From positions 1 through 59,105 of the forward strand of contig JAUVNS010000022.1 in assembly GCA_030599585.1 (NCBI GenBank): DNA of 59,105 nucleotides, read 5' to 3'. Positions 4,119-46,156 of the stretch are shown one piece after another. The stretch comes from Promethearchaeota archaeon. GTDB lineage: Archaea; Asgardarchaeota; Lokiarchaeia; Sigyniarchaeales; SOKP01. Position numbers and translations under genes: made by a program. Positions within the stretch are counted from its first letter, which is position 1, and each line of letters opens with the position of its first letter. Below the pieces are notes generated by a model. The model was not told the origin of the DNA, did not search any database, and was given only the letters and a program-made list of their open reading frames with translations.

Positions 4119-4580
4119 TTACCTCTCTAAAAAACAATTCAAATCCTCAACTAATTTAATTACAAGTTCTTCACTCAATTCCGATTTCAGTTCCTTAAAA
4201 AAGGAGGGGTGAAAACGAAACTTTGAATCTGTATAATCGATATCGCCGATATTATCGAAAAACGACTCAAAATCATAGTCGTGTTGTTTTTCAAACTCGT
4301 AAAAGACGTTACAGATTAAGTAATATCGAATTAATCCATTGATGTTTTCACGAGGAATCTCGAATATTTTTTCCTTTAAATCTACTATAAAATTATTGAA
4401 GAGATTAGAACCGTACTTTTCCTCAAACTTAATGATGAAGTTCTCAATATATTTTAAATCAATATCATTACACTCCAAGAGGTTCGTCAATACTTTCTTT
4501 TCAAACGAGCTATCTACCACCTCTAATTTATCATGTTTCACCTCAGAGATTTCCTTTTTATCTTCTTGGTAGTTATTCAT
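4119..4580 (-). CDS. Hypothetical protein
   Basis: 153-aa ORF in a tightly packed minus-strand run. Confidence 0.6.
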   Translation of the reverse strand: MNNYQEDKKEISEVKHDKLEVVDSSFEKKVLTNLLECNDIDLKYIENFIIKFEEKYGSNLFNNFIVDLKEKIFEIPRENINGLIRYYLICNVFYEFEKQHDYDFESFFDNIGDIDYTDSKFRFHPSFFKELKSELSEELVIKLVEDLNCFLER

Positions 4581-4659
4581 TTTCTCTTATACTCCTTCTT
4601 GCTATAGATTTCATTAATCGATTCAGGTATTTTGAGATGCCTTTTTTAAACATAGATTA

Positions 4660-5475
4660 TCAGTTAGCTACATCTAATAGTTCCTGAATATTTCTTTCTA
4701 AACTATGAATAGTAGCTATAGTAACGCCATATCCAATACTTTTCATCATATAACTTGCCTCTCGTAGTGATATAGAAGGTTCGCATAACCTTAAAGCAAC
4801 CGCTATTCTGCTACTTCGACTAACTGCCTTGTTAATCTTAAAAACACATTTTTCAACAATTTTAATACTTTTTAGCAATTCTTCTTTATCTATCCAATTA
4901 AATTGTTCTATCAAGTGTAATGCTATAATCCGATGTTCTCTACAAGCATAAATTATACAAGCTTCTATTTGAGTAAGATTATCAAGATCTACTTTTTCTC
5001 TTAATTCTGATAACTTCTTCTCTTGTTTTGAAAGTAACCTTCTATTTTTATTTACTAAAGCTGATTTCTCAACTCTAGGTTTCCTCTTAAGTTTAGTATA
5101 TTTTAGATATTCTTTAAATCCGATTCTAAACATTTTAACCACTATAAGTGTAGAAATACCTAATTCTTCTGCAATATCGTCCAAAGTTTTTTGTTTCTTC
5201 CTTAATTCAACAGCTTTTTCGAATAATTCGCGCCTTTCTTCTAGATATTCTTCTTCAGTCATCCGTGGTCCAATAGGGCGATAAGGAGCAAAATTTTTAT
5301 ATTCTGGAAAAAACATTGTCAACAATTTCGATATCGTTTGAACACAAAGATTTGTTTTTTTAGATATTTCACGCAAACTTAATCGTTGTTTGCGAAAGTT
5401 TATGATTCTTTCTATCAAATCACCATATACAAGCCTATAATCTTTTTTAGGCAATTTTAATTCTGTTTTACTCAT
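4660..5475 (-). CDS. Multi-HTH DNA-binding protein with possible cyclin-like C-terminus
   Basis: Two HTH repeats (LSLREISKKTNLCVQTISK; TLDDIAEELGISTLIV) and terminal ISLREAS...GVTIATI. Confidence 0.55.
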   Translation of the reverse strand: MSKTELKLPKKDYRLVYGDLIERIINFRKQRLSLREISKKTNLCVQTISKLLTMFFPEYKNFAPYRPIGPRMTEEEYLEERRELFEKAVELRKKQKTLDDIAEELGISTLIVVKMFRIGFKEYLKYTKLKRKPRVEKSALVNKNRRLLSKQEKKLSELREKVDLDNLTQIEACIIYACREHRIIALHLIEQFNWIDKEELLKSIKIVEKCVFKINKAVSRSSRIAVALRLCEPSISLREASYMMKSIGYGVTIATIHSLERNIQELLDVAN

Positions 5476-20200: not shown

Positions 20201-21385
20201 ATGTCGGAACCAGATCAATATCAACATTTTACTGGAGTTTTTCATCTTAAACAATTTAGTCCTGAGTATATTAATATTAAAAAAAAAAGAAAGGCTAAAC
20301 CAAGAAACCTAAGAGCTTATCATTATGAAAAGCCCTCTACTTTAAATTTAGATTTAAAACCTATTGGAGATATTTGTGGAAGAATGAACTTCTTCAGTCA
20401 ATATTTTGAAATGTATTTGGCAAAGAAAGTTGATAATAATGCCATGAATTGCACTTTAGAGGATATTATAAAAAATCACGATTTCGGTCAACTTACGCTA
20501 AAAAAGAGGGAAAATGTTCTGGTTTTATTTCTCTCATATATAGCAAGAACTGAAGCAAGAAGGCGAAGTGATCGATTGAAAATAAATCACTTAAAGCAAA
20601 TACCTAATGAAATCTATAAAAAGACCTTAGAAAGTTTATTTTATAAAGTTCAACAAGATGAATTAGTAACTGATGAAACAACATTAAGAAAATTCCAACA
20701 GCAGCAAGTCTATCAAATAACGAAATTTCCTCGCATATTAAAACCCTATTATTGGACTTTATTAATTAACAATACAAATGTTCCATTCATTATCGCTGAC
20801 AATCCTATCCTTACAAACTCTCATATTTCTATAATTAATAAATACATAACTCAAGTCCATATACCTATCTTAGGATATCCCGAAGGTTTTTTTATGCCAA
20901 TAAGTCCCAAAATTGGACTTATGTTATACCAATTTAAAAAGATAAGGTTTCCATTATTGCCGAATAAGATTCCAATCGATAGTAGACGTTTAATGCTTGC
21001 GTTAAATAATAGAATGATTAGATATGCCGAAAGAGACGTTATTACCTCTTTTAAGTCATTAAACTTATTAAAATCAATCGTGGGATGGGATCCTAAATGT
21101 CTTGAACCGATTAAATGGGAGCATAAAAGTCTTAGAATAGATCATGAAAAAAGCAATGTTTATAATTTAATCGAACATAAACCAAAGTTCCAGTGCAAAA
21201 CTTGTAAAAAATACTTCGAAGAGGAACATCAGTATCAACAACACATAAATAATCCGGTGGTACACCTAAAAAGAACAATACAATGTCCGTACTGTCATAC
21301 AAAGGTTAAATCAAAAGAAGGATTAGATCAACATATTGAAGATAAACACCCAAACCAAATTAAAAAAAAAGATACCAAAACATGA
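20201..21385 (+). CDS. DUF4238-like protein with two C-terminal C2H2 zinc fingers
   Basis: QHFTGVFHLKQF, FIIADNPI and FMPISPK resemble DUF4238 motifs; CKTC...HINNPVVH and CPYC...HIEDKH. Confidence 0.6.
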   Translation: MSEPDQYQHFTGVFHLKQFSPEYINIKKKRKAKPRNLRAYHYEKPSTLNLDLKPIGDICGRMNFFSQYFEMYLAKKVDNNAMNCTLEDIIKNHDFGQLTLKKRENVLVLFLSYIARTEARRRSDRLKINHLKQIPNEIYKKTLESLFYKVQQDELVTDETTLRKFQQQQVYQITKFPRILKPYYWTLLINNTNVPFIIADNPILTNSHISIINKYITQVHIPILGYPEGFFMPISPKIGLMLYQFKKIRFPLLPNKIPIDSRRLMLALNNRMIRYAERDVITSFKSLNLLKSIVGWDPKCLEPIKWEHKSLRIDHEKSNVYNLIEHKPKFQCKTCKKYFEEEHQYQQHINNPVVHLKRTIQCPYCHTKVKSKEGLDQHIEDKHPNQIKKKDTKT

Positions 21386-26544: not shown

Positions 26545-28722
26545 CTAGAGTCTCAAATTTGTCTTCCATCTATTCCAAAAATCTTCTAGCTTTTCAAAAC
26601 TAAACTTACTCAAATAAGAGATTTTGTGGAAAAATTCTATTAAATCGGTATTTGATAATTTATTATTTTTCTTAATATATTTAAAAATATCTTCGAATAT
26701 CGTAATATATTTCGAAAATGACTCCTCGTCAAGATTCATAAAATCTGTTAATTGCTGTATAGATTTAGTTCTGAAGAGATCGTCCGTCATCTCATCCCAA
26801 TCGTTTGATTTTGGATTGTATTTAAAGATCGGTCGTAGAAAGACTTTGTCTTCCCAAGAAGCTTCGATTTCGGCAATTTGAATTATTTTTCTTTCGTTAT
26901 TATTTTTTTTCATTAATACTAATAAATCTAAGTCGTTTAGGCATGTTTGATCAATTTTAAAGTGAGATAAAAATCTATTTATTAACGATTCTAAACTATT
27001 TGCGTGTATCGTTTGAAAACCTTTTAATCCTGCGGATAAGCAATGAAACATTGCTTCTGCTTCTTCTTGCGTAAGAATTTCTCCTAAATATATTATATCC
27101 GGAGACCGATGCAATAACTTTTTAATCTGATTTTGCTTTGAATATTTATGAATAATAGCATCTTCAATCGAATCTACTTTGTATTTTAATTGATGTTTTT
27201 TAAATTGTTTTTGATTTAACGACTCAACTGCATTCTCAACGTAAACTTTTCTAAAATTTTTAGGCGCTAATAAATCAAGAGCATTTATCAGCGTTGTTTT
27301 TCCAGTATCGGTTTTACCTACAGACGTTATATTATTTTGATGTAACTCGTTAAAATAGAGAAAAGCGGCCATAAGTGGACTTAATGTTTTATTTTTCAAT
27401 AAATCCTGAATTGTAAATATATTCTTATTCAATTTCCTAATGTCCAATGCAAAATGATTGAAATTTACCGGTTCTACATCAGTTGTGAATCGACAATAAA
27501 AGTATTTGTTTTTAATAACAAATTTAATACTAGGATTTGAATAATCAAGTCTCTTTCCACTATATAACCTTAGAAAGGACTTTAATCGCTCAATTTCTTT
27601 TGCATTAAAATCTATTAAAGTTCGGCATCTCCCATATTTTTGATGATTAATATATATAGCATCGTTATCCGAGTCTAAAAATATCTCTTCTATGAAATCA
27701 TCTATAAGTAAAGGAAAGATTTTTTCCAAATTTATTATTCTTAACGCAGAATGAAACCCTAACCTTTCTTTTTCGCTTTTCGTAAAATTGTACTTTTTGC
27801 TAATAAAATTAATAGCTTGGATTTTTAGACCCTCTATTAAATCTTCTAACGATATTTTTTTAGAGAAAGAAATTTTTGGGGTTAAGTAATCTTCAACATT
27901 TCTAACGATCTTCTTAGAAAAACTTTCTTCTTCTTTATCCTTAAAACACATTTCAATTTCATAGATTTTTTCGTATTCGTAAGGTATGTGATAAATTAAG
28001 ATTTTATACAAATTTTCGTTTCCAATATTGTATATTTCAATTAATTTTCTTTTGATCTGTTCTTTCTCTTCCATAATCTCTTTTTTTAACGGTAAGAGAT
28101 TAGAATTAATTGAAAGGAGTTCTCTATAGTCAATTAAATAATTAGAAATCTCTCCTTTCTCCTTTTTAAGTGTTTTATATTCCTGGATAACTTGAGTGTT
28201 TTCTAAATATGCTAATAAAGATTTGATTTTTTGCTTTACATCGCTGTAACATCTTAAGCAGGTGGGCGATTGAACATTTTGATAATCAATTAATTTAAAT
28301 TTTTCTAAAACTTTTAGGTACATTCCTATAGGATCGCAAAACTCTTTTTCGTCTAAATGAAAAACTGATTCAAAATTTGGAAGGATTCTACATTTAAATT
28401 CTTCAAAATTACATTTTTTTCTTACTCCAATTTTGATGGATTCCCATAGATTTTTAATTTTATTTAATTTATTAAAATATTGCAGGAATAATCTGATCTG
28501 GACCCAATCAATTAAATAATCTGCGTTAATTATGACCTTCTTAAATTTTTTTTTCCTAATAGAATATAATTTTACTAAAATGCATAAGATACATTCTTCT
28601 TTATGAAATAATTTATTTTTGCTTTCGAGACATTCATTACAATCAATTAAAGCTATATTTTCCTTTTTGCCGTCAAAGTTTTCTCTTTCTTGAATTTCAA
28701 TTATTTTATTACTAGTTAACAT
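26545..28722 (-). CDS. Type II/IV secretion (TadA/CpaF/VirB11-like) ATPase with Cys-rich N-terminal extension
   Basis: LDIRKL, Walker A GKTDTGKTTLINAL, VENAVES, Walker B PDIIYLGEI, His box TIHA. Confidence 0.85.
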   Translation of the reverse strand: MLTSNKIIEIQERENFDGKKENIALIDCNECLESKNKLFHKEECILCILVKLYSIRKKKFKKVIINADYLIDWVQIRLFLQYFNKLNKIKNLWESIKIGVRKKCNFEEFKCRILPNFESVFHLDEKEFCDPIGMYLKVLEKFKLIDYQNVQSPTCLRCYSDVKQKIKSLLAYLENTQVIQEYKTLKKEKGEISNYLIDYRELLSINSNLLPLKKEIMEEKEQIKRKLIEIYNIGNENLYKILIYHIPYEYEKIYEIEMCFKDKEEESFSKKIVRNVEDYLTPKISFSKKISLEDLIEGLKIQAINFISKKYNFTKSEKERLGFHSALRIINLEKIFPLLIDDFIEEIFLDSDNDAIYINHQKYGRCRTLIDFNAKEIERLKSFLRLYSGKRLDYSNPSIKFVIKNKYFYCRFTTDVEPVNFNHFALDIRKLNKNIFTIQDLLKNKTLSPLMAAFLYFNELHQNNITSVGKTDTGKTTLINALDLLAPKNFRKVYVENAVESLNQKQFKKHQLKYKVDSIEDAIIHKYSKQNQIKKLLHRSPDIIYLGEILTQEEAEAMFHCLSAGLKGFQTIHANSLESLINRFLSHFKIDQTCLNDLDLLVLMKKNNNERKIIQIAEIEASWEDKVFLRPIFKYNPKSNDWDEMTDDLFRTKSIQQLTDFMNLDEESFSKYITIFEDIFKYIKKNNKLSNTDLIEFFHKISYLSKFSFEKLEDFWNRWKTNLRL

Positions 28723-29971: not shown

Positions 29972-30370
29972 TCATAGGGATTGGAGCCCTCTCTTCTTAA
30001 ATTTTTCTTTTAACTCGTTAATTATTGCTAATCTATTATTTCCCGCTGATTCCTTACCCCTGCTATTTGAATGGGGTATTTTCGGTGGATGGTGCAATGT
30101 ATTATTGTCCGAAATTTTACTTTTATCGAAAACATTTTTTTCTGATTTTGGTGCTACAGGAGGATGTGATGGCAATTCTACCTGAATATTTGAGTTTACA
30201 CTTACTGGATTTAAAATGTGTTTAGATTTTAATTGCCTTATTGCCTTCTCTTTATTATTTTCTAAGTTTTCCGCTTCCCAAATTTTATTTATTAGCTTGT
30301 TTAATGCTATAACATCGATTTCTTCGCTATTCGAAATTATATCCTTATTCTGATCCTGTGTACTATTCAC
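29972..30370 (-). CDS. Proline-rich protein with C-terminal amphipathic helix
   Basis: LPSHPPVAP, HHPPKIP, then RLAIINELKEKFKKR. Confidence 0.5.
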   Translation of the reverse strand: MNSTQDQNKDIISNSEEIDVIALNKLINKIWEAENLENNKEKAIRQLKSKHILNPVSVNSNIQVELPSHPPVAPKSEKNVFDKSKISDNNTLHHPPKIPHSNSRGKESAGNNRLAIINELKEKFKKRGLQSL

Positions 30371-30517
30371 ATAATATTTTAATAATAGACATTTAAAAAC
30401 TACATTTTAATTGAACTGCTATAACTCGGTTATATGCGTTAACACGTTTTTAACTCCGATAATTTTTTAATATTTTTTATAAGGGTTTTAATAATTTAGA
30501 TTGAAAAGCATGTTGTT

Positions 30518-30730
30518 ATGAAATATTTAAAAAAAATAGCAACTGGTTTTAAGAAAAAAGTCGTTGAATTTATTTTAGACGAATATGGCGGGAATCTGAG
30601 CGAATATATAATGGGGATAGTTATTGGCGTTATCATTTTCTTTGTAATTATAGCGATTGTCCTTGGAGTTTTTACATGGGCAGGAGATTCTTTTAACGAT
30701 CTTTTCAATTGGACTGGAGCTGGTGGATAA
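30518..30730 (+). CDS. Flp/Tad-like prepilin
   Basis: Basic leader, FILDEYG|GNLSEY (Glu+5, Tyr+6 as in the Flp motif), then a hydrophobic helix; 70 aa. Confidence 0.7.
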   Translation: MKYLKKIATGFKKKVVEFILDEYGGNLSEYIMGIVIGVIIFFVIIAIVLGVFTWAGDSFNDLFNWTGAGG

Positions 30731-31281
30731 TATTTTTTTACTTAACTAAAACGAATAAATTTATCAAATCCAAATTCTTGAAGATTATATTTTTCAGATG
30801 AACAGAGTTTAATAAAAGATTATAATCATTTGGTCAAACTCTGTAAAGACTTATCATACTACTATTTTCTTGATCTCAATCAAAATTTTTACATATTTCA
30901 CAATTTAGTCTTTTTACTAAACTTTCTCTCCGCAAAAGAGGATCAATCCCTATATTTCTTTGCTCAATAGTATCCTTTAGGATTTCCTATATATCATTCA
31001 TCTGTTTTTCTGTTAATCCATAAGAAATTAATAACCACCTCATAAACCATATTCCTTTCTCAAGATTTTAATGAATTATGGGAACTTGATATCATCAAAA
31101 CAATCACTTTTATGAATGCAGTCAAATATGCTGATTGAGTATTATTAAGAATTATTTAAAAATTTTTAACACTATAGGTCAAAATTTTAAAATAAAAAAC
31201 TATCTATATACTATACAATAATGAATTTATTATAATTTAGTTTGAAAAGAACCAATTCTATTATAAAAAGGAGAAGAAATA

Positions 31282-34011
31282 ATGAGTTTTGATATCCCAG
31301 ATTCTAAAACTACAGCACTTAACCCTCTAGATTTATATCGGCAATTGAATAAAGATCCGAAATTTAAAGGTTTAATCCACCCACAAGAACCAATGATAGA
31401 AAAATATTATAGTTTACACGATAGTAAAGATTTATCAATACAATTAGCAACTGCGGGAGGAAAAACTTTAATAGGATTACTCATAGGGGAGTGGAGACGC
31501 ACACACTTACAAGAGCGGGTCTTATATTTAACCCCTACAAAACAATTGGCTAACCAAGTAGCAAATGAAGCAGAATCTCTTGGAATTTCAGCGGTTGTTC
31601 TACATGGAACGTTTCTAAATTATCCTGAAGCTGATTGTGAAGCTTACACAAATTGCAAATCAATTGCTATTAGTAATTATACCAATTTTTTTAACACATC
31701 TACTCGATTCAAAGATGGATCAGATGCATACTCGATAGGAAAACCACAATGTTTGATTTGTGATGATGCACATTCAGCTGATAATTATGTTTCAAGTCAA
31801 TATTCAATAGAAATACCTCGAATAAAATATAGATTGTTATATAATCAATTTTTTGATATTTTTAAAGATTATTTTTCTTTTGATTTTGATGAAACAAGTA
31901 AAGTGCAATTAATTCCCGCAGTTCTTATTTCTGAAAACCTTGATAGAATTAACCGTGTACTAGAGAATAACATAGATGTAGAGAGTAAAAAACCCACTGA
32001 TCTTTTTTTTCCTTATCGGAATATTAAAGATCATCTTCACTGTTGTTTGTTTTTTATCTCTTATACAAGAATTCTGATCCGTCCATGGATCTCTCCAACA
32101 TGGACACATCAGCCTTTTAATAATGTAAACCATCGAATATATTTAAGTGCCACCATCGGTCTTTATAATGATCTTGAACGGATTTTTGGAGTATACCCTA
32201 TTAAATCTATTGAATTCTCTGAAAAAACTGATTTGATCAAGGGGAAAAGAATGATATTATTTGTATCCCAAATTCTTACTCAAGTTTCTGAAGAAAAAGA
32301 CAAATTCTTGAGTCAGATTATTAACTCCTTTGATAAAGCATTATTATTATCCCCATCTAACGAAGAAATTAAAAAGATAAAACAACGAGGTTTAATAAAA
32401 CCATTTAACAAAAAAATTGAAGGCAATGAGATAGAAGAAACTCTTGCTCCATTTCAAGACGAAAAAAGTGCAATTCTTTTATTAACAAGATATGATGGTA
32501 TAGATTTGATTGGATGTCCAATGTTAGTTTTTTGGCATGCTCCGACTGCGATTAATCTTCAAGAATCATTTTTGGGAGATACTCTCGGAGAACAAACAAT
32601 TATAAAAACACGCACCCTCACTCGAATTATTCAGGGATTGGGACGATGTACAAGAACAGATAATGATCAAACGCTAGTATTATTATGCGGCAATGAATTT
32701 GTAAATGTATTAAATAAAAGAGATATAAAAAATTTTCCTAGTCAACTGAGTGTTGAAATTGAATATGGATTGGGATGGTCCATGAATAACTCACCTCAAA
32801 AGATTAAAACTCTAATAGATCACTTCAAAAAAAAAACCGCAAATTGGAAAGGTGCAGTTTCGAAAATATTAAGTGAAACAACCAGAAGAAAAAGCGAAGG
32901 AACAACATCTCCAAACAATAATATTCAATCTCTAGAAAATGAAATTAAGTTTATGAAGTCCCTATGGGGAAAAGCTTGGGAGGGGGCAATTAACTATGCA
33001 TCTAAAATAATTACAGATTTAGATGACAAAAAAAAAAAATATCGAGCTTGGTGGTATTATTTCAAAGGACATGCATTGTATTTGAGATATAAAAATACAA
33101 ATCAAGAGGCTTTTTTAAGAACTGCTCTGGAGTGCTTCAAACAGTGTCATCAAGATACTCTGGAGATCACTTCTCTACTACTTCATAATTTCATCGAAAA
33201 ATCACATATAGACAACATATTTATTTCACCAAAAACAGAAAAAGAATTAATTCAAAAAAGTTCTAAAGCGTTACTTATTGGGATAGATTCTTATCAGGAT
33301 ACCAATGTCAATAAATTAACAAGCTGCATTTATGATGTTGATGAAATTAAAGAAATTCTTATAGATCCTAACCGATGTGGATATTCCCCTGAAAATGTGA
33401 TAGTTTTACATAATGCAACTAAGGCTAAAATTATATACAATCTGAAAGAGTTTAGTAATATTTCAGGAAACTCAACTGTGATCATTTATTTTTCTGGACA
33501 TGGAACCCATAAAGATGGAAAATCCTATCTTGTACCAAGCGATTATCAACAAGGAGAAGTAGATACATTAATTTCAGGAGAAGAATTTAGAAAATCGCTA
33601 GATAATATTAATGTTCATCGTTTAGTAATTGTTTTAGATGCTTGTAAATCTGGGGGATTATTTACTAATACAACAATTATAAAAGGAAACGACTCTGATT
33701 TGAAAAGTGGATTAAGTGAAAAGTACTTTAACTCGATTTTAAAGACTCATGGTCGTGTAATTATCTCATCTTCAGGTAAAGAACAGAATTCCCTAGGTGG
33801 GCTTTCAGGAGATTTAAGTTTATTTACCCAATATTTCTGTCAAGGATTAAAGGGTGGTACAGAGGATTATAGAACTTACGATAATGATGGAATGATTAGA
33901 ATACTGGGTTTGATTAAATATATATCATCTAGCACAAAGGCAAAACAAGACGTTTGGTTACGCTGTAATTCTATGGATTTCCCAATTGCACTTTATAAAG
34001 GAGGAAAATAA
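31282..34011 (+). CDS. SF2 (DEAD/DEAH, DinG-like C-lobe) helicase fused to a C-terminal caspase-like (peptidase C14) domain
   Basis: LATAGGKT, YLTPTKQLANQV, DDAH, LSAT, IIQGLGRCTR; KALLIGIDSY, YFSGHG (His), VLDACKSG (Cys), LSLFTQY. Confidence 0.85.
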   Translation: MSFDIPDSKTTALNPLDLYRQLNKDPKFKGLIHPQEPMIEKYYSLHDSKDLSIQLATAGGKTLIGLLIGEWRRTHLQERVLYLTPTKQLANQVANEAESLGISAVVLHGTFLNYPEADCEAYTNCKSIAISNYTNFFNTSTRFKDGSDAYSIGKPQCLICDDAHSADNYVSSQYSIEIPRIKYRLLYNQFFDIFKDYFSFDFDETSKVQLIPAVLISENLDRINRVLENNIDVESKKPTDLFFPYRNIKDHLHCCLFFISYTRILIRPWISPTWTHQPFNNVNHRIYLSATIGLYNDLERIFGVYPIKSIEFSEKTDLIKGKRMILFVSQILTQVSEEKDKFLSQIINSFDKALLLSPSNEEIKKIKQRGLIKPFNKKIEGNEIEETLAPFQDEKSAILLLTRYDGIDLIGCPMLVFWHAPTAINLQESFLGDTLGEQTIIKTRTLTRIIQGLGRCTRTDNDQTLVLLCGNEFVNVLNKRDIKNFPSQLSVEIEYGLGWSMNNSPQKIKTLIDHFKKKTANWKGAVSKILSETTRRKSEGTTSPNNNIQSLENEIKFMKSLWGKAWEGAINYASKIITDLDDKKKKYRAWWYYFKGHALYLRYKNTNQEAFLRTALECFKQCHQDTLEITSLLLHNFIEKSHIDNIFISPKTEKELIQKSSKALLIGIDSYQDTNVNKLTSCIYDVDEIKEILIDPNRCGYSPENVIVLHNATKAKIIYNLKEFSNISGNSTVIIYFSGHGTHKDGKSYLVPSDYQQGEVDTLISGEEFRKSLDNINVHRLVIVLDACKSGGLFTNTTIIKGNDSDLKSGLSEKYFNSILKTHGRVIISSSGKEQNSLGGLSGDLSLFTQYFCQGLKGGTEDYRTYDNDGMIRILGLIKYISSSTKAKQDVWLRCNSMDFPIALYKGGK

Positions 34012-34164
34012 TTAACGAAATACTTTTAGGATAAAAAGTTGGAGAGAATTAATTATTTATGCAAATAATACATAATGCAATATCTTCGTATTACTACATC
34101 AAATTGTAGTTAATTTTTATTAAAATAAAGAAAACTCTGTCAAATATGGAAGAGTGAAATAAAA

Positions 34165-34962
34165 TTGTGTAGATTATTTGGATTAATTGCAAATAGAGAA
34201 GTGAATCTTGAATTTAGTTTTCTGAAAGCAGATTTACCTTTCAAAAATTTAAGTAGAAATAACCCACACGGATGGGGAATAGGTTATTATAAGGAAAATT
34301 TTGCTAAAATTCAAAAAGAACCCTTTCCAGCAATCCAAAGTAAAAAATTTGAGGAAATTGCTAGAAATGAAAATTCAAAGATGTTTATTTCTCATGTTAG
34401 GTATTCTACTCAAGGAGAAAAAACATTTGAAAATACTCATCCATTTATATATGATAATTGGATATTTGCCCATAATGGAAATATCGATATCAGAGATAAA
34501 TTATTAGAACTTCTTAATTCCAAATTTAAAAATTTGATTAAAGGAAAAACTGATTCTGAAGTCTATTTTTACTGGTTAATGCAAAATATTGAAGACCAAA
34601 ATGATCTTTTTAATGGTATCAAAAAAAGTATCTCTTTTATACAATCAAATAAGGGGGATAGAACAACTGGATTAAATTTTGTACTTATAAATGGGGAAAA
34701 ATTAATTGCACTAAGAAAGGCGCTCCAGAGATCACATAAGTATTCTTTGTATTATTCTAACCGAAAACCAGATATAATGGAACATATGAAATTCCAATCA
34801 AATGAAACCAGGCAATTAATAACTTCTAAGAATTTAAAAGGTGAAGAAGCTGTATTAGTATGTTCAGAACCATTGACAGAAGATGAAAATTGGATAGAGT
34901 TAAACAATAATCAACTTTTAATAGTAGAAAAAAACTTAAAATTAAAAAAATGGGATATATAA
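34165..34962 (+). CDS. Class II glutamine amidotransferase (YafJ/EgtC-like Ntn hydrolase)
   Basis: MCRLFG (Cys2 nucleophile), NPHGWGIG, SHVRYST, NTHPF, FAHNG, GKTDSE, CSEPL. Confidence 0.9.
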   Translation: MCRLFGLIANREVNLEFSFLKADLPFKNLSRNNPHGWGIGYYKENFAKIQKEPFPAIQSKKFEEIARNENSKMFISHVRYSTQGEKTFENTHPFIYDNWIFAHNGNIDIRDKLLELLNSKFKNLIKGKTDSEVYFYWLMQNIEDQNDLFNGIKKSISFIQSNKGDRTTGLNFVLINGEKLIALRKALQRSHKYSLYYSNRKPDIMEHMKFQSNETRQLITSKNLKGEEAVLVCSEPLTEDENWIELNNNQLLIVEKNLKLKKWDI

Positions 34963-35761
34963 ATTAGCTAATCAAAATTTATAATCTAATATTGAATATT
35001 AAAATCAAATAGAATAAAAATGTTTATCAATATTAAAAAAGGATTAAAAAGAAGATTATAAAAATGTCGGATTCAAGAATCCATTCGAGTTAAATAATTA
35101 AGAATAGGTTGACGAAATTTAAGAAAAATAGAACATACTAAAATTAAAAGTTAATTTAATTTTACTTTTGATGGTGTTTTAGTAAAAGCTTGAAATAAGA
35201 AAACAGCGATCCAAATATTATTTTTATAATATATATGAAAACATTTTTTTAATGGAAATGCAACAACAATGTTGTTTTTTATTTCTTTTCTAATATCTGC
35301 AATGCATAATATCCCGAATCCAGATTTTCCAGCTTCTCTTATGATCTGATCTTTATGCTTATTATATTTTTCTTCAAGAATGTTTTGATTATCCAAATTT
35401 TCTTCTGTTTTAAGGAGTTTATCCTCAATTGGAATCTCATCAATCCAATGATCAGAGTTACCCCCTGATACTCCAGATTTATCCTTCAACCTTGTTCTAA
35501 ATCGATGTAATAAGACTCTTGATAACCAAGGGGACATTATTTTGAAAATTTTTGGGTTATTTATGAAAACGCACAGGAAAATTAGATGAGATGAAATTAA
35601 AGATTATTGAATAAGAGAGACGAAAATACAGTCAATAAAAGAAATTTACTTTAGATTATTTTTAAAAAATCTCATTTTGGCATTTATGCTCATTTCACAT
35701 TTGGAAAATGGTGAGTTCAATTAAAATGTTCTCGTATTAACAGGTAACAATTTTATTACAA

Positions 35762-36637
35762 CTATTTTTTAACGATTACCTGAAAAACGAGTAAAAAATT
35801 CCAAAAATAATGAAGTAACCAAGCAAAAAATAAACCATTACTAATCAATGTAATGGAGAAAATAATACTATAAAAAAAACATATATTTAAATGTATGATT
35901 GCGTTCTTATCAAGCTTCTTATGATTAAATATATGTAAAAGAGTGAATGTAATACTAACTAACATAATTGTAAAGAATAAGTCTAAATTAGTATAAGAAA
36001 TAATCACATTTATAAGAAGATATCTAAAAATTACCTCTTCATATAAAGTTAATAATGAAATGAGCAGTAATAATAATAACTTTTTATAGGTTGAGGGATT
36101 ATTCATCAAGAATTTAAATATTTGGGTAAAATTTCCATTTTTAGACTCCTTATCAGAAGGTTTTAGACGATTTATTAAAATAAAAAGCCCAATGAAAAGT
36201 AAAAAGTAGAATATGATGCTATAATCAAAAGAAGTTGAAATTCCATAAAAATTGAAGTTCGGACCCTGGATCATCAAAGAAGAAAACGCATAGGAATTCT
36301 TATTTGTAGCCGATAAATTCAAGAATAAAATGAAAAAAGCAAATATCCCTAAACACACTCCTAATTTTTTCAGAAATCTTCCTTTTTTAATTAAATATAA
36401 GCTTAACATAAGTAATAAAACGATTTGAAGTATTTCGCTAAAAAGATAAAGAATTCTAATCTCTAGGGTTAATCCAAATATTAAAAGACTTACGTATATT
36501 GCACCAATCGAATATATAAGATAAAAAAATTTTATTTTTTTTAAATCGAATTCAATTTCTTTAGAATCGTATTCTACATAAATGGATTTTTCTATAATTT
36601 TTGTGATATCACTGGTTTTTTTACTTGAAATCATCAT
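35762..36637 (-). CDS. CPBP/Abi (CAAX) family intramembrane metalloprotease
   Basis: Multi-pass membrane protein with YEEVIFR, FTLLH and LHYFWN motifs. Confidence 0.8.
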   Translation of the reverse strand: MMISSKKTSDITKIIEKSIYVEYDSKEIEFDLKKIKFFYLIYSIGAIYVSLLIFGLTLEIRILYLFSEILQIVLLLMLSLYLIKKGRFLKKLGVCLGIFAFFILFLNLSATNKNSYAFSSLMIQGPNFNFYGISTSFDYSIIFYFLLFIGLFILINRLKPSDKESKNGNFTQIFKFLMNNPSTYKKLLLLLLISLLTLYEEVIFRYLLINVIISYTNLDLFFTIMLVSITFTLLHIFNHKKLDKNAIIHLNICFFYSIIFSITLISNGLFFAWLLHYFWNFLLVFQVIVKK

Positions 36638-44940: not shown

Positions 44941-45106
44941 ATTAATCCCAAAGCAACAGATTTCTACAAATAGTAAATAAGAAAATTCAAAAATTTATCA
45001 AAAATCCTTGATTATCTTGACCGCAATAAAGCAATCCCATAAAAATTATTTGGTAAGATGCGGATTTTATTTTTCGGATTATTATTTATCTCAATATGGG
45101 AGTTAT

Positions 45107-46156
45107 ATGAATGACATAGTTCCCAATTTTAACCTCTTGAACATAAATGAATTACCTGTTTTAGTTAGACCCTTTGACCTTGCTGATTATTTGGATATAA
45201 AATTTTCCACTCTAATAAAATACGGGAGTGTAAAAGAAGAGATAACCCTCTCTGAATCGATGTATAAGATATTTACAATAAAAAAGAAGACTGGGGGGAA
45301 ACGATATATCATAACCCCCGTTGATGGATTAAAAGAAATTCAAAAAAAGATTTATAGATTTATTCTTTTACATGTAAGAGCTTCTAGGTTTGCTACGGGA
45401 TTTATACCAACTAAATCAAATATAACAAATGCAAAAAATCATTATGGGTTTAAAGTTATTTACATCTTGGATTTAAAAAACTTTTTTCCTACAATTAAAT
45501 TTTCAAATGTATTTGAAATGTACAATTTAAAATTTGGATATTCAAAAGCCATCTCATTTTTGTTAACTAAATTAACCACTCACTTACCTCGTAGACATTC
45601 CAATGGGATGTTAAAGTTGTTGCCAAATTCTGAAAGTTTTCTTCCCCAAGGATCTCCGAGTTCTCCATACATCTCTAATCTTATTTTTAGCGAAGCAGAT
45701 TATGCTTTATATAAATTATCTCGTAAATATAACTTTGAATACTCTAGATATGCGGATGATATAACTTTTTCTAGTAAGGAACGGAAAATTGTTCCAACTG
45801 AATTTAGAGCAGGTGTAACAAAAATCATCAAGGAATCGGGATTTTATATAAATTACAAAAAGGAGCTCATCACAAGAACAAGACAGAAGATTACTGGAAT
45901 TATTGCCCACGACACACATTTAACACTTCCTCGGCAATGGATAAAGAGACTTCGCGCAGCTCTGCATGAATTAAAATATTTAGACTGTGAGAAAGAAGCG
46001 CTAGAAGTTCTCCTAAATAAGTTAAAGAACGTTCAAGGTAGGATAAACTATGCAATGGGTGTCAATAGGGGGAAATATTATCATTTTTATCTCGAATTTC
46101 AAGAGTTAAGATTATCGAAGTTTAAATATTTATTTAAAGATAAAAAAACAATATAA
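45107..46156 (+). CDS. Retron-type reverse transcriptase (likely start ATG 45107; track ORF starts at 45008)
   Basis: KKTGGKRYI, LKEIQKKI, ATGF, NAKNH (retron NAxxH), LDLKNFFPTI, LPQGSPSSP, YSRYADDITFS, QKITG (VTG-like); ggag SD before 45107. Confidence 0.9.
   Translation: MNDIVPNFNLLNINELPVLVRPFDLADYLDIKFSTLIKYGSVKEEITLSESMYKIFTIKKKTGGKRYIITPVDGLKEIQKKIYRFILLHVRASRFATGFIPTKSNITNAKNHYGFKVIYILDLKNFFPTIKFSNVFEMYNLKFGYSKAISFLLTKLTTHLPRRHSNGMLKLLPNSESFLPQGSPSSPYISNLIFSEADYALYKLSRKYNFEYSRYADDITFSSKERKIVPTEFRAGVTKIIKESGFYINYKKELITRTRQKITGIIAHDTHLTLPRQWIKRLRAALHELKYLDCEKEALEVLLNKLKNVQGRINYAMGVNRGKYYHFYLEFQELRLSKFKYLFKDKKTI

Follow-up and report, generated by a model that had tools for sequence, protein, structure and literature searches.

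A helicase-caspase fusion in Loki-type archaea as a candidate effector-swap variant of the Hna defence family

Introduction

What might a Loki-type archaeon do with a single protein that joins a helicase to a caspase-like protease, and do the neighbouring genes take part? The question arises from a window (the whole stretch of DNA analysed, 59,105 bp) that spans positions 1-59,105 of contig JAUVNS010000022.1, from assembly GCA_030599585.1 of a Promethearchaeota archaeon (Lokiarchaeia; Sigyniarchaeales; SOKP01). An earlier note, made from the letters of this DNA, read the gene as part of an immune module. Here we consider where the two halves of the protein come from, how the gene is distributed, and which of its neighbours belong with it.

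Results

The fusion gene and its parts

The gene product, P0001, comprises 909 aa and is encoded by an open reading frame with an ATG start at 31282-34011 (+). Pfam finds both halves of the fusion described in the earlier note, with DEAD/ResIII matches in the N-terminal part, and all of the motifs it named are located in the protein: GGKT (59-62), DDAH (161-164), SAT (289-291), QGLGRCTR (451-458), SGHG (738-741) and DACKSGG (786-792). The AF2 model has a pLDDT of 87 and a pTM of 0.78. The parts of the gene are as follows.

31282..34011, +, Hna-type helicase-caspase fusion gene, P0001 (ORF, Pfam, PADLOC profile, AF2 model, Foldseek)
31282..32736, +, SF2 ATPase core with HEL1, a reduced Arch and HEL2; aa 1-485 (PDC-S28, PDB 10uj_A, Foldseek 9yhn, motifs)
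32740..33159, +, helical bundle common to Hna, within the PDC-S28 match; aa 487-626 (HMM match, alignment, model)
33184..33225, +, flexible, low-confidence linker and nuclease-to-caspase exchange point; aa 635-648 (pLDDT <50; Hna homology ends)
33244..34008, +, Peptidase_C14 caspase domain; aa 655-909 (Pfam, metacaspase-4 alignment, Foldseek, homodimer prediction)
33499-33501, +, codon of catalytic His740, in the caspase domain
33643-33645, +, codon of catalytic Cys788, in the caspase domain
33670-33744, +, disordered loop after Cys788, in the caspase domain; aa 797-821

The helicase half belongs to the Hna family

The structure of Hna, a widespread anti-phage protein, was solved recently, and in Hna the helicase motifs keep a nuclease under an ATP-dependent lock. 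The sensor half of P0001 is DinG/XPD-like, not RIG-I-like, and homologous to Hna. Residues 3-617 match the PADLOC profile PDC-S28 (E 5e-89), and residues 13-498 match the solved Hna structure 10uj_A in a sequence search of the PDB (E 3e-24). Foldseek with the model returns Hna 9yhn as the top PDB match (E 2e-31), and the Hna monomer and dimer rank first among PDB entries, ahead of DinG, XPD and CasDinG. That PDC-S28 is Hna is seen from P0014, which matches PDLC04986 at 1023 bits and 10uj_A at E 3e-218 over its full length (Hna is deposited as 9YHN, 9YKJ and 10UJ; PMC13381803). The ATPase core residues of P0001 are Q35, K61, D161/D162, SAT289-291 and R455/R458. The modelled helices that follow span aa 487-626, and in the alignment with Hna proteins this bundle keeps W522, E554 and the YRAWW motif. 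No conserved four-Cys cluster is common to P0001 and the Hna family in that alignment, so an Fe-S cluster is not expected.

The profile match ends at position 611-619 of 831-846. Beyond it, the PD-(D/E)xK nuclease domain is missing from the P0001 C-terminus, where Peptidase_C14 stands instead; the PD...E-x-K block is seen only in the 840-880-aa proteins of the Hna alignment. Pfam gives no significant family for the C-terminal domains of ordinary Hna proteins or for the P0001 linker. In the tree, the six fusion proteins included group together as a single clade (SH-aLRT 100) that falls within the Hna family. This clade lies in the other deep branch from the characterised S. meliloti type, with which P0001 shares 26% identity, and the one named member of the branch that encloses the fusion helicase is cyanobacterial. 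From sequence and modelled structure, we take the fusion to be a new, apparent effector-swap variant of a known defence family, whose function we infer.

The caspase half resembles conflict-system effectors

Peptidase_C14 (PF00656) matches P0001 at aa 662-863 (E 1e-19; 71.3 bits against a cut-off of 21.4). His740 (SGHG) and Cys788 (DACKSGG), a dyad invariant in eight copies of the fusion, align with the SGHG and DSCHSGG of Arabidopsis metacaspase-4 (6w8s). An Asp lies two residues ahead of the catalytic Cys (DAC) and may point to metacaspase-like cleavage after Arg/Lys. Foldseek finds the caspase fold, matching MALT1 (4i1p_C) and metacaspase-9 (8a53_B) with a probability of 1.00. The nearest caspase domains are linked to EAD7, TCAD9 or AAA_35, which are effector architectures of conflict systems (PMC7159879); identity to these conflict-system relatives reaches 37%, and the named relatives are bacterial. 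NCBIfam NF047832 (caspase_w_EACC1) scores P0001 at 88.6 bits, under its curated cut-off of 140, and comparison of the fusion loci found no conserved small neighbour gene.

As a homodimer, the caspase domain scored 0.56 against 0.00 for the best control. Among proteins of solved structure, 20 of 30 pairs of one chain and 1 of 23 single chains reach the mark used, and because caspase dimers have already been solved, the pass may reflect likeness to known structures. Runs agree on at least 83% of contacts, with a partner pLDDT of 77 or more. The interface consists of helix 873-886 and the last strand, 890-899, and a canonical back-to-back caspase dimer is predicted.

The fusion recurs and is under selection

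Eight full-length intact copies on independent contigs rule out an assembly chimera or a one-off. The search for helicase and Peptidase_C14 fusions adds at least seven contigs that carry the gene, drawn from six other assemblies or runs (GCA_004196315.1, GCA_004196275.1, ERZ23486227, ERZ940452, ERZ4220937 and SRR14872671), and a further fragment is KKL93062.1 from Loki's Castle. The ATPase and caspase motifs are all retained in 8/8 full-length copies. There are two subtypes, A and B, mutually 48% identical, and these are the only two fusion clusters found in an exhaustive search of 1.84 billion representatives. A metagenome scan with the fusion alignment returned known contigs only, plus ordinary Hna genes, and the fusion was found in none of 36 same-genus genomes searched. 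It is rare and narrowly distributed, being known from a few marine-sediment Loki-type sequences. Purifying selection acts on both halves: dN/dS for the B-type pair is 0.18 in the helicase, 0.18 in the linker and 0.23 in the caspase, and for the A-type pair it is 0.48-0.68.

The gene appears to move alone

Some of the DNA preceding the gene is shared with other copies.

31020..31281, +, conserved cassette DNA ahead of the gene; probable promoter, 5' UTR and GGAG ribosome-binding site (L001 comparison)

This region is 94% identical to positions 2151-2412 of locus L001, and homology drops sharply to its left; in other copies, homology starts at 30931, 31134 or 31183. Across A-type copies, nucleotide homology of 92-94% begins 100-350 bp upstream of the gene and ends at the stop codon or 90-190 bp past it. 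The 3' flank of 90-190 bp is common to L001, L048, L051 and L052 and missing in the window. Copies that are 94% identical occupy unrelated flanks, and the seven contexts share the fusion gene and its short flanks alone, with no partner gene in common. Judged from these comparisons, the fusion gene appears to move by itself as single-gene horizontal cargo, and an apparent single-gene organisation like that of Hna is upheld.

A 16-nt perfect inverted repeat (30402-30417 / 35714-35729), unique in the genome, may represent transposon-like insert ends. Two or more loose matches arose in 11 of 100 shuffles, a rough estimate of chance occurrence being 0.07, and the right arm is absent from L052. L050 contains an inverted 71-bp gene fragment.

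Neighbours at other fusion loci include AbiTii, SLFN/AlbA_2 and an LRR-AAA_15/21 protein, and the window also holds a retron-type RT (RT_XIII, E 1e-79), a DUF4238 protein and a GajB-like helicase. This defence-type neighbourhood suggests an immune role. The protein might instead serve its host as a sensor of DNA damage or replication stress that leads to programmed cell death or proteolytic signalling. Damaged or single-stranded DNA is the substrate of DinG/XPD-like ATPases, ssDNA stimulates the Hna ATPase (PMC13381803), and prokaryotic caspase-like proteases have been linked to stress-induced death. However, patchy, strain-specific occurrence, unrelated flanks at 94% identity and absence from all 36 genus relatives form the pattern of an accessory conflict gene and not of a core stress pathway, and we consider the stress-sensor explanation unlikely.

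Genes beside the fusion

Two features lie to the right, on the opposite strand.

35151..35537, -, remnant, the C-terminal 126 aa of a 581-aa gene of unassigned family (85% nt identity)
35762..36637, -, Rce1/CPBP-like polytopic membrane protease (motifs and L052 orthologue)

The remnant is 85% identical at the nucleotide level to the 3' end of a 581-aa ORF at G000:C49, another place in this genome, where the gene is intact. The flanks had been described as gene-poor or fragmentary, and this description holds: the left one is the cassette's upstream region (31020-31281) and the right one contains this remnant. Placement inside a pilus locus may hold in part. A T2SSE/FlaI-like ATPase at 26545-28722 (T2SSE, E 9e-16) is the sole "pilus" gene with tool support, and a 70-aa ORF at 30518-30730 (+) has the look of an Flp pilin, with a G/xxxxEY motif, by eye only. 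The ORF at 29972-30370 was rejected as a pilin, its translation being hydrophilic and without a Pfam match. The gene previously called TadC-like, at 35762-36637, is Rce1/CPBP-like instead: EExxxR, FxxxH and HxxxN motifs can be read in its translation, and its L052 orthologue (86% aa) passes PF02517 (34.7 bits, cut-off 22.4). Pfam on the window's own protein gives no match even at E 10. Because the right flank is CPBP and not TadC, the pilus context holds at best for the left flank of this genome.

In the window, L052 and L003 the CPBP gene lies next to the fusion and converges on it, and a two-gene system could be envisaged in which the caspase acts on or with the membrane protease, for example by unleashing a membrane-damaging effector. 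These three loci, with CPBP just downstream, represent both subtypes (the window and L052, A-type; L003, B-type). The L003 CPBP gene is 84% identical at the nucleotide level, versus 48% between the fusion proteins, and defence proteases often adjoin a latent effector (PMC12642450, PMC12799240). Yet CPBP is absent within 5-8 kb at L001, L002 and L048/L049, the three linked loci may represent a single orthologous chromosomal site shared by related strains and so not be independent, and a distance of 1.75 kb, occupied by other DNA, separates the two genes in the window. A scan of metagenomes with the CPBP protein for an "empty" site found none. We judge a two-gene system with CPBP to be quite improbable.

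Immediately after the fusion lies another gene.

34165..34962, +, class-II (Ntn) GATase_4 / YafJ-EgtC-like gene, P0002, 265 aa (Pfam E 3e-37)

The class II GATase reported there is present and intact, scoring 128.6 bits against a cut-off of 23. Its protein opens with M-C-R-L-F-G, which supplies the Ntn cysteine, and it misses the EgtC equivalog threshold (97.7 vs 218.65). The proposal that it forms one functional pair with the helicase-caspase draws on a shared strand, a gap of 153 bp and the accessory status of both genes in the source genome, but the pairing is not conserved: the GATase occurs at none of the seven other fusion loci, and L052, a 92%-identical locus, has 518 bp in place of the window's 1.73-kb GATase segment. 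None of the 36 same-genus genomes has a P0002 orthologue. The window has also lost the 3' flank common to other copies, which indicates that an insertion or replacement took place later, precisely at the stop codon. From locus comparison, the GATase appears to be a neighbour only, a secondary arrival outside the fusion system, and we give the pair very little credence. Decaying or selfish cargo without current function, for which narrow distribution and nearby remnants (the 35151-35537 relic, the L050 fragment) could speak, is similarly implausible given eight full-length copies that keep every catalytic motif and dN/dS well below 1.

Discussion

What, then, does the fusion do? An immune sensor with a protease effector, acquired by insertion, is the best reading, because the fusion is genuine, recurs and is under selection, its sensor is of the Hna family, its caspase relatives are NTPase conflict effectors, and it behaves as mobile cargo. 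This much of the earlier interpretation stands, and the GATase pairing falls away. We think it probable that the protein is a self-contained, horizontally mobile, single-protein abortive-infection module, in which an Hna-family ATP-gated sensor has had its nuclease exchanged for a caspase-type protease. More specifically, and tentatively, it may be a Loki-type one-protein death switch that runs from a viral replication protein or ssDNA, through the Hna-type sensor, to pairing of the fused caspase.

The S. meliloti Hna forms an ATP-stabilised auto-inhibited dimer, is activated by phage SSB and gives an abortive-infection phenotype; phage SSB acts on the ATP-locked dimer, and Hna does not unwind DNA although ssDNA stimulates its ATPase (PMC13381803). 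If the fusion works along these lines, the ATP-bound motor would keep the protein inhibited in an uninfected cell, and a viral replication product, with a viral ssDNA-binding protein and/or exposed ssDNA as the likeliest candidates, would lift the inhibition. Two caspase domains would then pair and become active, the protease would cut a wide range of host (or viral) proteins, or a single essential target, and the infected cell would die or arrest ahead of virus release. Across the seven contexts compared, no dedicated substrate gene travels with the fusion; caspase genes without an effector can defend E. coli (PMC12642450). With 26% identity and a position in another deep branch, the trigger and the ATP-dimer lock may differ from those of Hna. 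Sensor-effector coupling must differ somehow, because Hna activation dissolves a dimer whereas caspases usually pair.

The closest known system is Hna itself, which shares the homologous N-terminal two thirds (a HEL1-HEL2 core without an Fe-S cluster, plus the helical bundle), single-gene organisation and an accessory, mobile distribution. Unlike Hna, with its C-terminal PD-(D/E)xK 3'-5' ssDNA exonuclease, the fusion carries Peptidase_C14 at that position; its host is archaeal, and its identity to the characterised type is low. HamMAB, the protease-bearing Hachiman, likewise combines an SF2 helicase-type sensor with a protease effector in mobile defence contexts, but by its description it is set apart by a trypsin-like protease with a pro-nuclease substrate gene (PMC12799240). 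Avs12-caspase with EACC1 and the EAD7/TCAD9 caspases have the most similar caspase and place it under control of an NTPase sensor (PMC7159879, PMC12642450); that sensor is a STAND or AAA NTPase, whereas in P0001 it is an SF2 ATPase, and the fusion appears to travel without an EACC1, MBL or hydrolase substrate gene. Type IV Thoeris, as cited in PMC13069673, uses a caspase-like protease as the killing arm of abortive infection; according to that citation, activation comes from a TIR-made nucleotide signal of a separate protein, whereas the fusion's sensor is attached. RIG-I-like receptors and Apaf-1/caspase-9 follow similar logic, in which a sensor that depends on NTP brings about caspase pairing and cell death. 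Here the likeness drawn in the earlier note is by analogy only, as the DinG/XPD-like sensor is not homologous (RIG-I belongs to a different SF2 branch) and the fusion has no adaptor domains.

Descent shared with the eukaryotic pathways finds no support in this analysis. Both halves look acquired, the helicase from its place in an Hna branch with a cyanobacterial named member and the caspase from its bacterial named relatives. Because the fusion is also rare and narrowly distributed, it has by itself no bearing on the origin of eukaryotic apoptosis. The searched surveys of archaeal and Asgard immune effectors list neither Hna nor caspases, and the literature searched contains no report of Hna/PDC-S28 combined with a caspase.

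By keeping the Hna lock and swapping in a protease, the fusion offers a natural test of this sensor as a general, portable switch, and raises the question of how activation that involves leaving a dimer could drive an enzyme that normally pairs. If the proposed function is correct, this would be a previously undescribed direct wiring of a helicase-family sensor to a caspase, and, among the archaeal relatives of eukaryotes, the first antiviral effector of caspase type to be tied to a defined sensor. Archaeal immune effectors, and those of Asgard archaea in particular, form a very thin catalogue, to which the fusion contributes a defined sensor-caspase protein.

A caspase in the place of the Hna nuclease

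The fusion protein (P0001) is encoded in a single open reading frame:

31282-34011, + strand, fusion ORF P0001, 909 aa

Pfam places DEAD/ResIII at aa 35-169 and Peptidase_C14 at aa 662-863 (E 1e-19), with weak matches to Helicase_C and Helicase_C_2, and all of the helicase and caspase motifs named in the earlier note were found. Both PADLOC PDC-S28 models match aa 3-617 (E about 5e-89), the match stopping at about profile position 615 of 831-846. PDC-S28 represents the Hna (helicase-nuclease abortive-infection) family, since an 844-aa relative (P0014) matches both PDC-S28 (1023 bits) and, at full length, the solved Hna chain 10uj_A (E 3e-218; also 9yhn and 9ykj). Compared directly with 10uj_A, P0001 gives E 3e-24. 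Its AlphaFold2 model (input alignment of 90 rows) has a mean pLDDT of 87 and a pTM of 0.78, and Foldseek ranks the Hna monomer (E 2e-31) and dimer (E 9e-26) on top, followed by DinG, XPD and CasDinG. The C-terminal part of the model retrieves MALT1 and metacaspase-9.

Hna is an abortive-infection system of one protein, whose SF2 motifs do not unwind DNA. Instead, ATP binding locks an auto-inhibited dimer, and phage SSB frees this lock to unleash a C-terminal PD-(D/E)xK 3'-5' ssDNA exonuclease (Hooper et al., PMC13381803). When P0001 is aligned with ordinary Hna proteins, the homology spans the shared ATPase core and helical bundle (aa 487-626) and stops at a linker (aa 635-648) that is modeled with low confidence. 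Beyond it, Hna proteins of 840-880 aa carry the PD...E-x-K nuclease block, whereas P0001 carries the caspase. His740 (in SGHG) and Cys788 (in DACKSGG) are in place, and both motifs align with their counterparts in Arabidopsis metacaspase-4. After Cys788 the model has a disordered loop (aa 797-821), at the place where caspases have their inter-subunit linker. The nearest relatives of the caspase (≤37% identity) are fused to AAA_35, EAD7 or TCAD9, which are effector architectures in NTP-dependent conflict systems (Kaur et al., PMC7159879). Within the Hna branch that holds the fusion, P0006, P0009 and P0010 have a predicted nuclease block of PD...(E/Q)-D-x-S, not PD...E-x-K (alignment A1, columns about 800-830), and the canonical lysine is missing at the expected place.

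Effector exchange is a familiar theme among defence systems. Helicases and proteases have been combined before, in a protease-bearing Hachiman whose helicase is of a different family from Hna (PMC12799240). The literature searched gave no description of an Hna sensor fused to a caspase, and the Asgard defence surveys searched describe neither Hna nor caspases.

Recurrence and mobility of the fusion gene

A word-indexed search returned three further fusions, P0003 (89% identity), P0004 (47%) and P0005 (48%). An exhaustive phmmer search of 1.84 billion representatives gave 416 relatives at E below 1e-30; among the best 150 of these, nearly all have the Hna length (840-890 aa), and a full-length match occurs in the P0003 and P0004 clusters only. 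Cluster members supplied additional fusions (P0206, P0209, P0210, P0211) and a fragment found in the metagenome of Loki's Castle sediment, and a metagenome scan for new fusion contexts found none beyond those known. Every ATPase and caspase motif is unchanged across the eight full-length copies. The recurrence on independent contigs sets aside the assembly chimera or one-off that the earlier note listed as a refutation.

A tree built from the helicase part puts the six fusions included into one clade (SH-aLRT 100) of two subtypes, A and B. Hna splits there into two deep branches, and the fusion clade is nested within the larger one. Ordinary Hna-like ORFs of 852-858 aa in three Asgard genomes (G057, G055 and G052; loci L005, L006 and L007) fall in the other deep branch, with the S. 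meliloti type and apart from the fusion helicase. The gene is under selection, with dN/dS values in the B-type pair of 0.18 (helicase), 0.18 (linker) and 0.23 (caspase), and in the very close A-type pair of 0.48, 0.68 and 0.48.

The A-type copies are 92-94% similar to the window at the nucleotide level, and their similarity begins at staggered points.

Left start of similarity to the window in A-type loci
30931, L052
31020, L001
31134, L048-L050
31183, L051

The right-hand limit of similarity is the same in every A-type copy: 34011, exactly the window's stop codon. Past this codon, L001, L048, L051 and L052 have in common a further 90-190 bp with no counterpart in the window. Similarity between the B-type loci L002 and L003 (82% nt) is confined to the gene. 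Flanks of L001 and L002 show only scattered matches to the window's genome. A cassette that is 94% identical between flanks matching at about 70-77% points to recent transfer or recombination of the A-type cassette. The gene was found in none of the 36 same-genus genomes searched. Other fusion loci have AbiTii, SLFN/AlbA_2 (two proteins) and an LRR-AAA_15/21 protein of 1283 aa among their neighbors. Upstream of the full copy in L050, positions 1-71 hold an inverted 71-bp piece of the fusion gene (window 31637-31567, 92%), which records either recombination or another copy that was destroyed.

Neighboring genes and genome setting

Three features lie to the right of the fusion gene:

34165-34962, + strand, GATase_4 gene (P0002; Pfam), N-terminus M-C-R-L-F-G
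35151-35537, - strand, 128-aa ORF, C-terminal relic with 85% nucleotide identity to a 581-aa gene on contig C49
35762-36637, - strand, Rce1/CPBP-like gene with EExxxR, FxxxH and HxxxN motifs and an orthologue in L052

The N-terminus of P0002 has the Ntn cysteine in place, and its score is under the EgtC cut-off. The GATase is absent from all other fusion loci, and no orthologue was found within the genus. L052 represents the same locus, with fusion and downstream genes each 92% nt identical to the window's, but the two genes are 518 bp apart there versus 1.73 kb in the window. The window's additional DNA holds the GATase and the 128-aa ORF, whose full-length counterpart is intact in the same genome (G000:C49; L087 2492-4237). 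Because other loci lack the GATase and L052 lacks its segment, the GATase is a later arrival, unrelated to the fusion gene. The helicase-caspase gene, with its sharp borders, is mobile alone, as the proposed insertion would have it, and not paired with the GATase.

The gene at 35762-36637, previously taken as TadC-like, instead encodes a CPBP-type membrane protease: it has the motifs, and its L052 orthologue (4229-5053; 86% aa identical) passes Pfam PF02517, Rce1-like, although the window protein itself has no Pfam match. At three loci (window, L052 and, of B-type, L003 3195-3410) it adjoins the fusion gene convergently, and so in both subtypes, which lends a minor possibility that the protease is a partner of the fusion protein; fusions at L001, L002 and L048/L049 have no adjoining CPBP gene. 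No partner is conserved across the fusion loci.

Of the proposed pilus locus, a T2SSE/FlaI-like ATPase on the left is the only gene with profile support, and the proposed TadC is reassigned. By eye, a 70-aa ORF (30518-30730, +) has a hydrophobic helix after G/GNLSEY, resembling the Flp prepilin motif G/xxxxEY, and no profile support was found for it. A perfect 16-nt inverted repeat, ACATTTTAATTGAACT (30402-30417 and 35714-35729), encloses the entire accessory segment that lies between the ORF at 29972-30370 and the CPBP gene. It is unique within the 4.85-Mb genome (52 contigs). Its right arm recurs at L003 3138-3153, precisely where L003-window homology starts, and is absent from L052; the repeat may be chance.

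The window, low in G+C (about 27%), is archaeal: it encodes Orc1/Cdc6, TFIIB and RadA together with a GTPase of the Arf/Ras family, a set typical of Asgard archaea. It also encodes a UvrD-type helicase (288-2471, -; PADLOC RTasHel E 4e-70, GajB E 6e-64), a protein (20201-21385, +) that combines DUF4238, a domain counted among defence systems (PMC11291487), with C2H2 zinc fingers at its C-terminus, and a retron-type reverse transcriptase (45008-46156, +; best PADLOC match RT_XIII, E 1e-79). Downstream of the last are a RadA paralogue and then a metallophosphoesterase, and these three may form a second defence-type module. The helicase, DUF4238 protein and reverse transcriptase lend the window a defence-island flavour.

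Proposed function

Two copies of P0001 aa 650-909, predicted together with controls, passed as a homodimer (0.56 versus 0.00 for the best control). The mark is attained by 20 of the 30 proteins whose solved structures are same-chain pairs and by 1 of the 23 whose solved structures are single chains. The runs agree in at least 83% of contacts, and the partner pLDDT is 77 or higher. The two chains meet symmetrically through helix 873-886 and the final strand (890-899). We read the predicted pair as the classical caspase dimer, and the pass may come from likeness to caspase dimers already solved.

There is a tension here, in that Hna is activated by leaving its dimer and caspases usually require one. 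The best explanation is that the fusion is an Hna-derived abortive-infection module of one protein with a protease effector. By analogy with Hna, an ATP lock may hold the fusion protein until viral SSB or ssDNA triggers it; caspase pairing would then bring activation, and the resulting proteolysis would lead to cell death or arrest.
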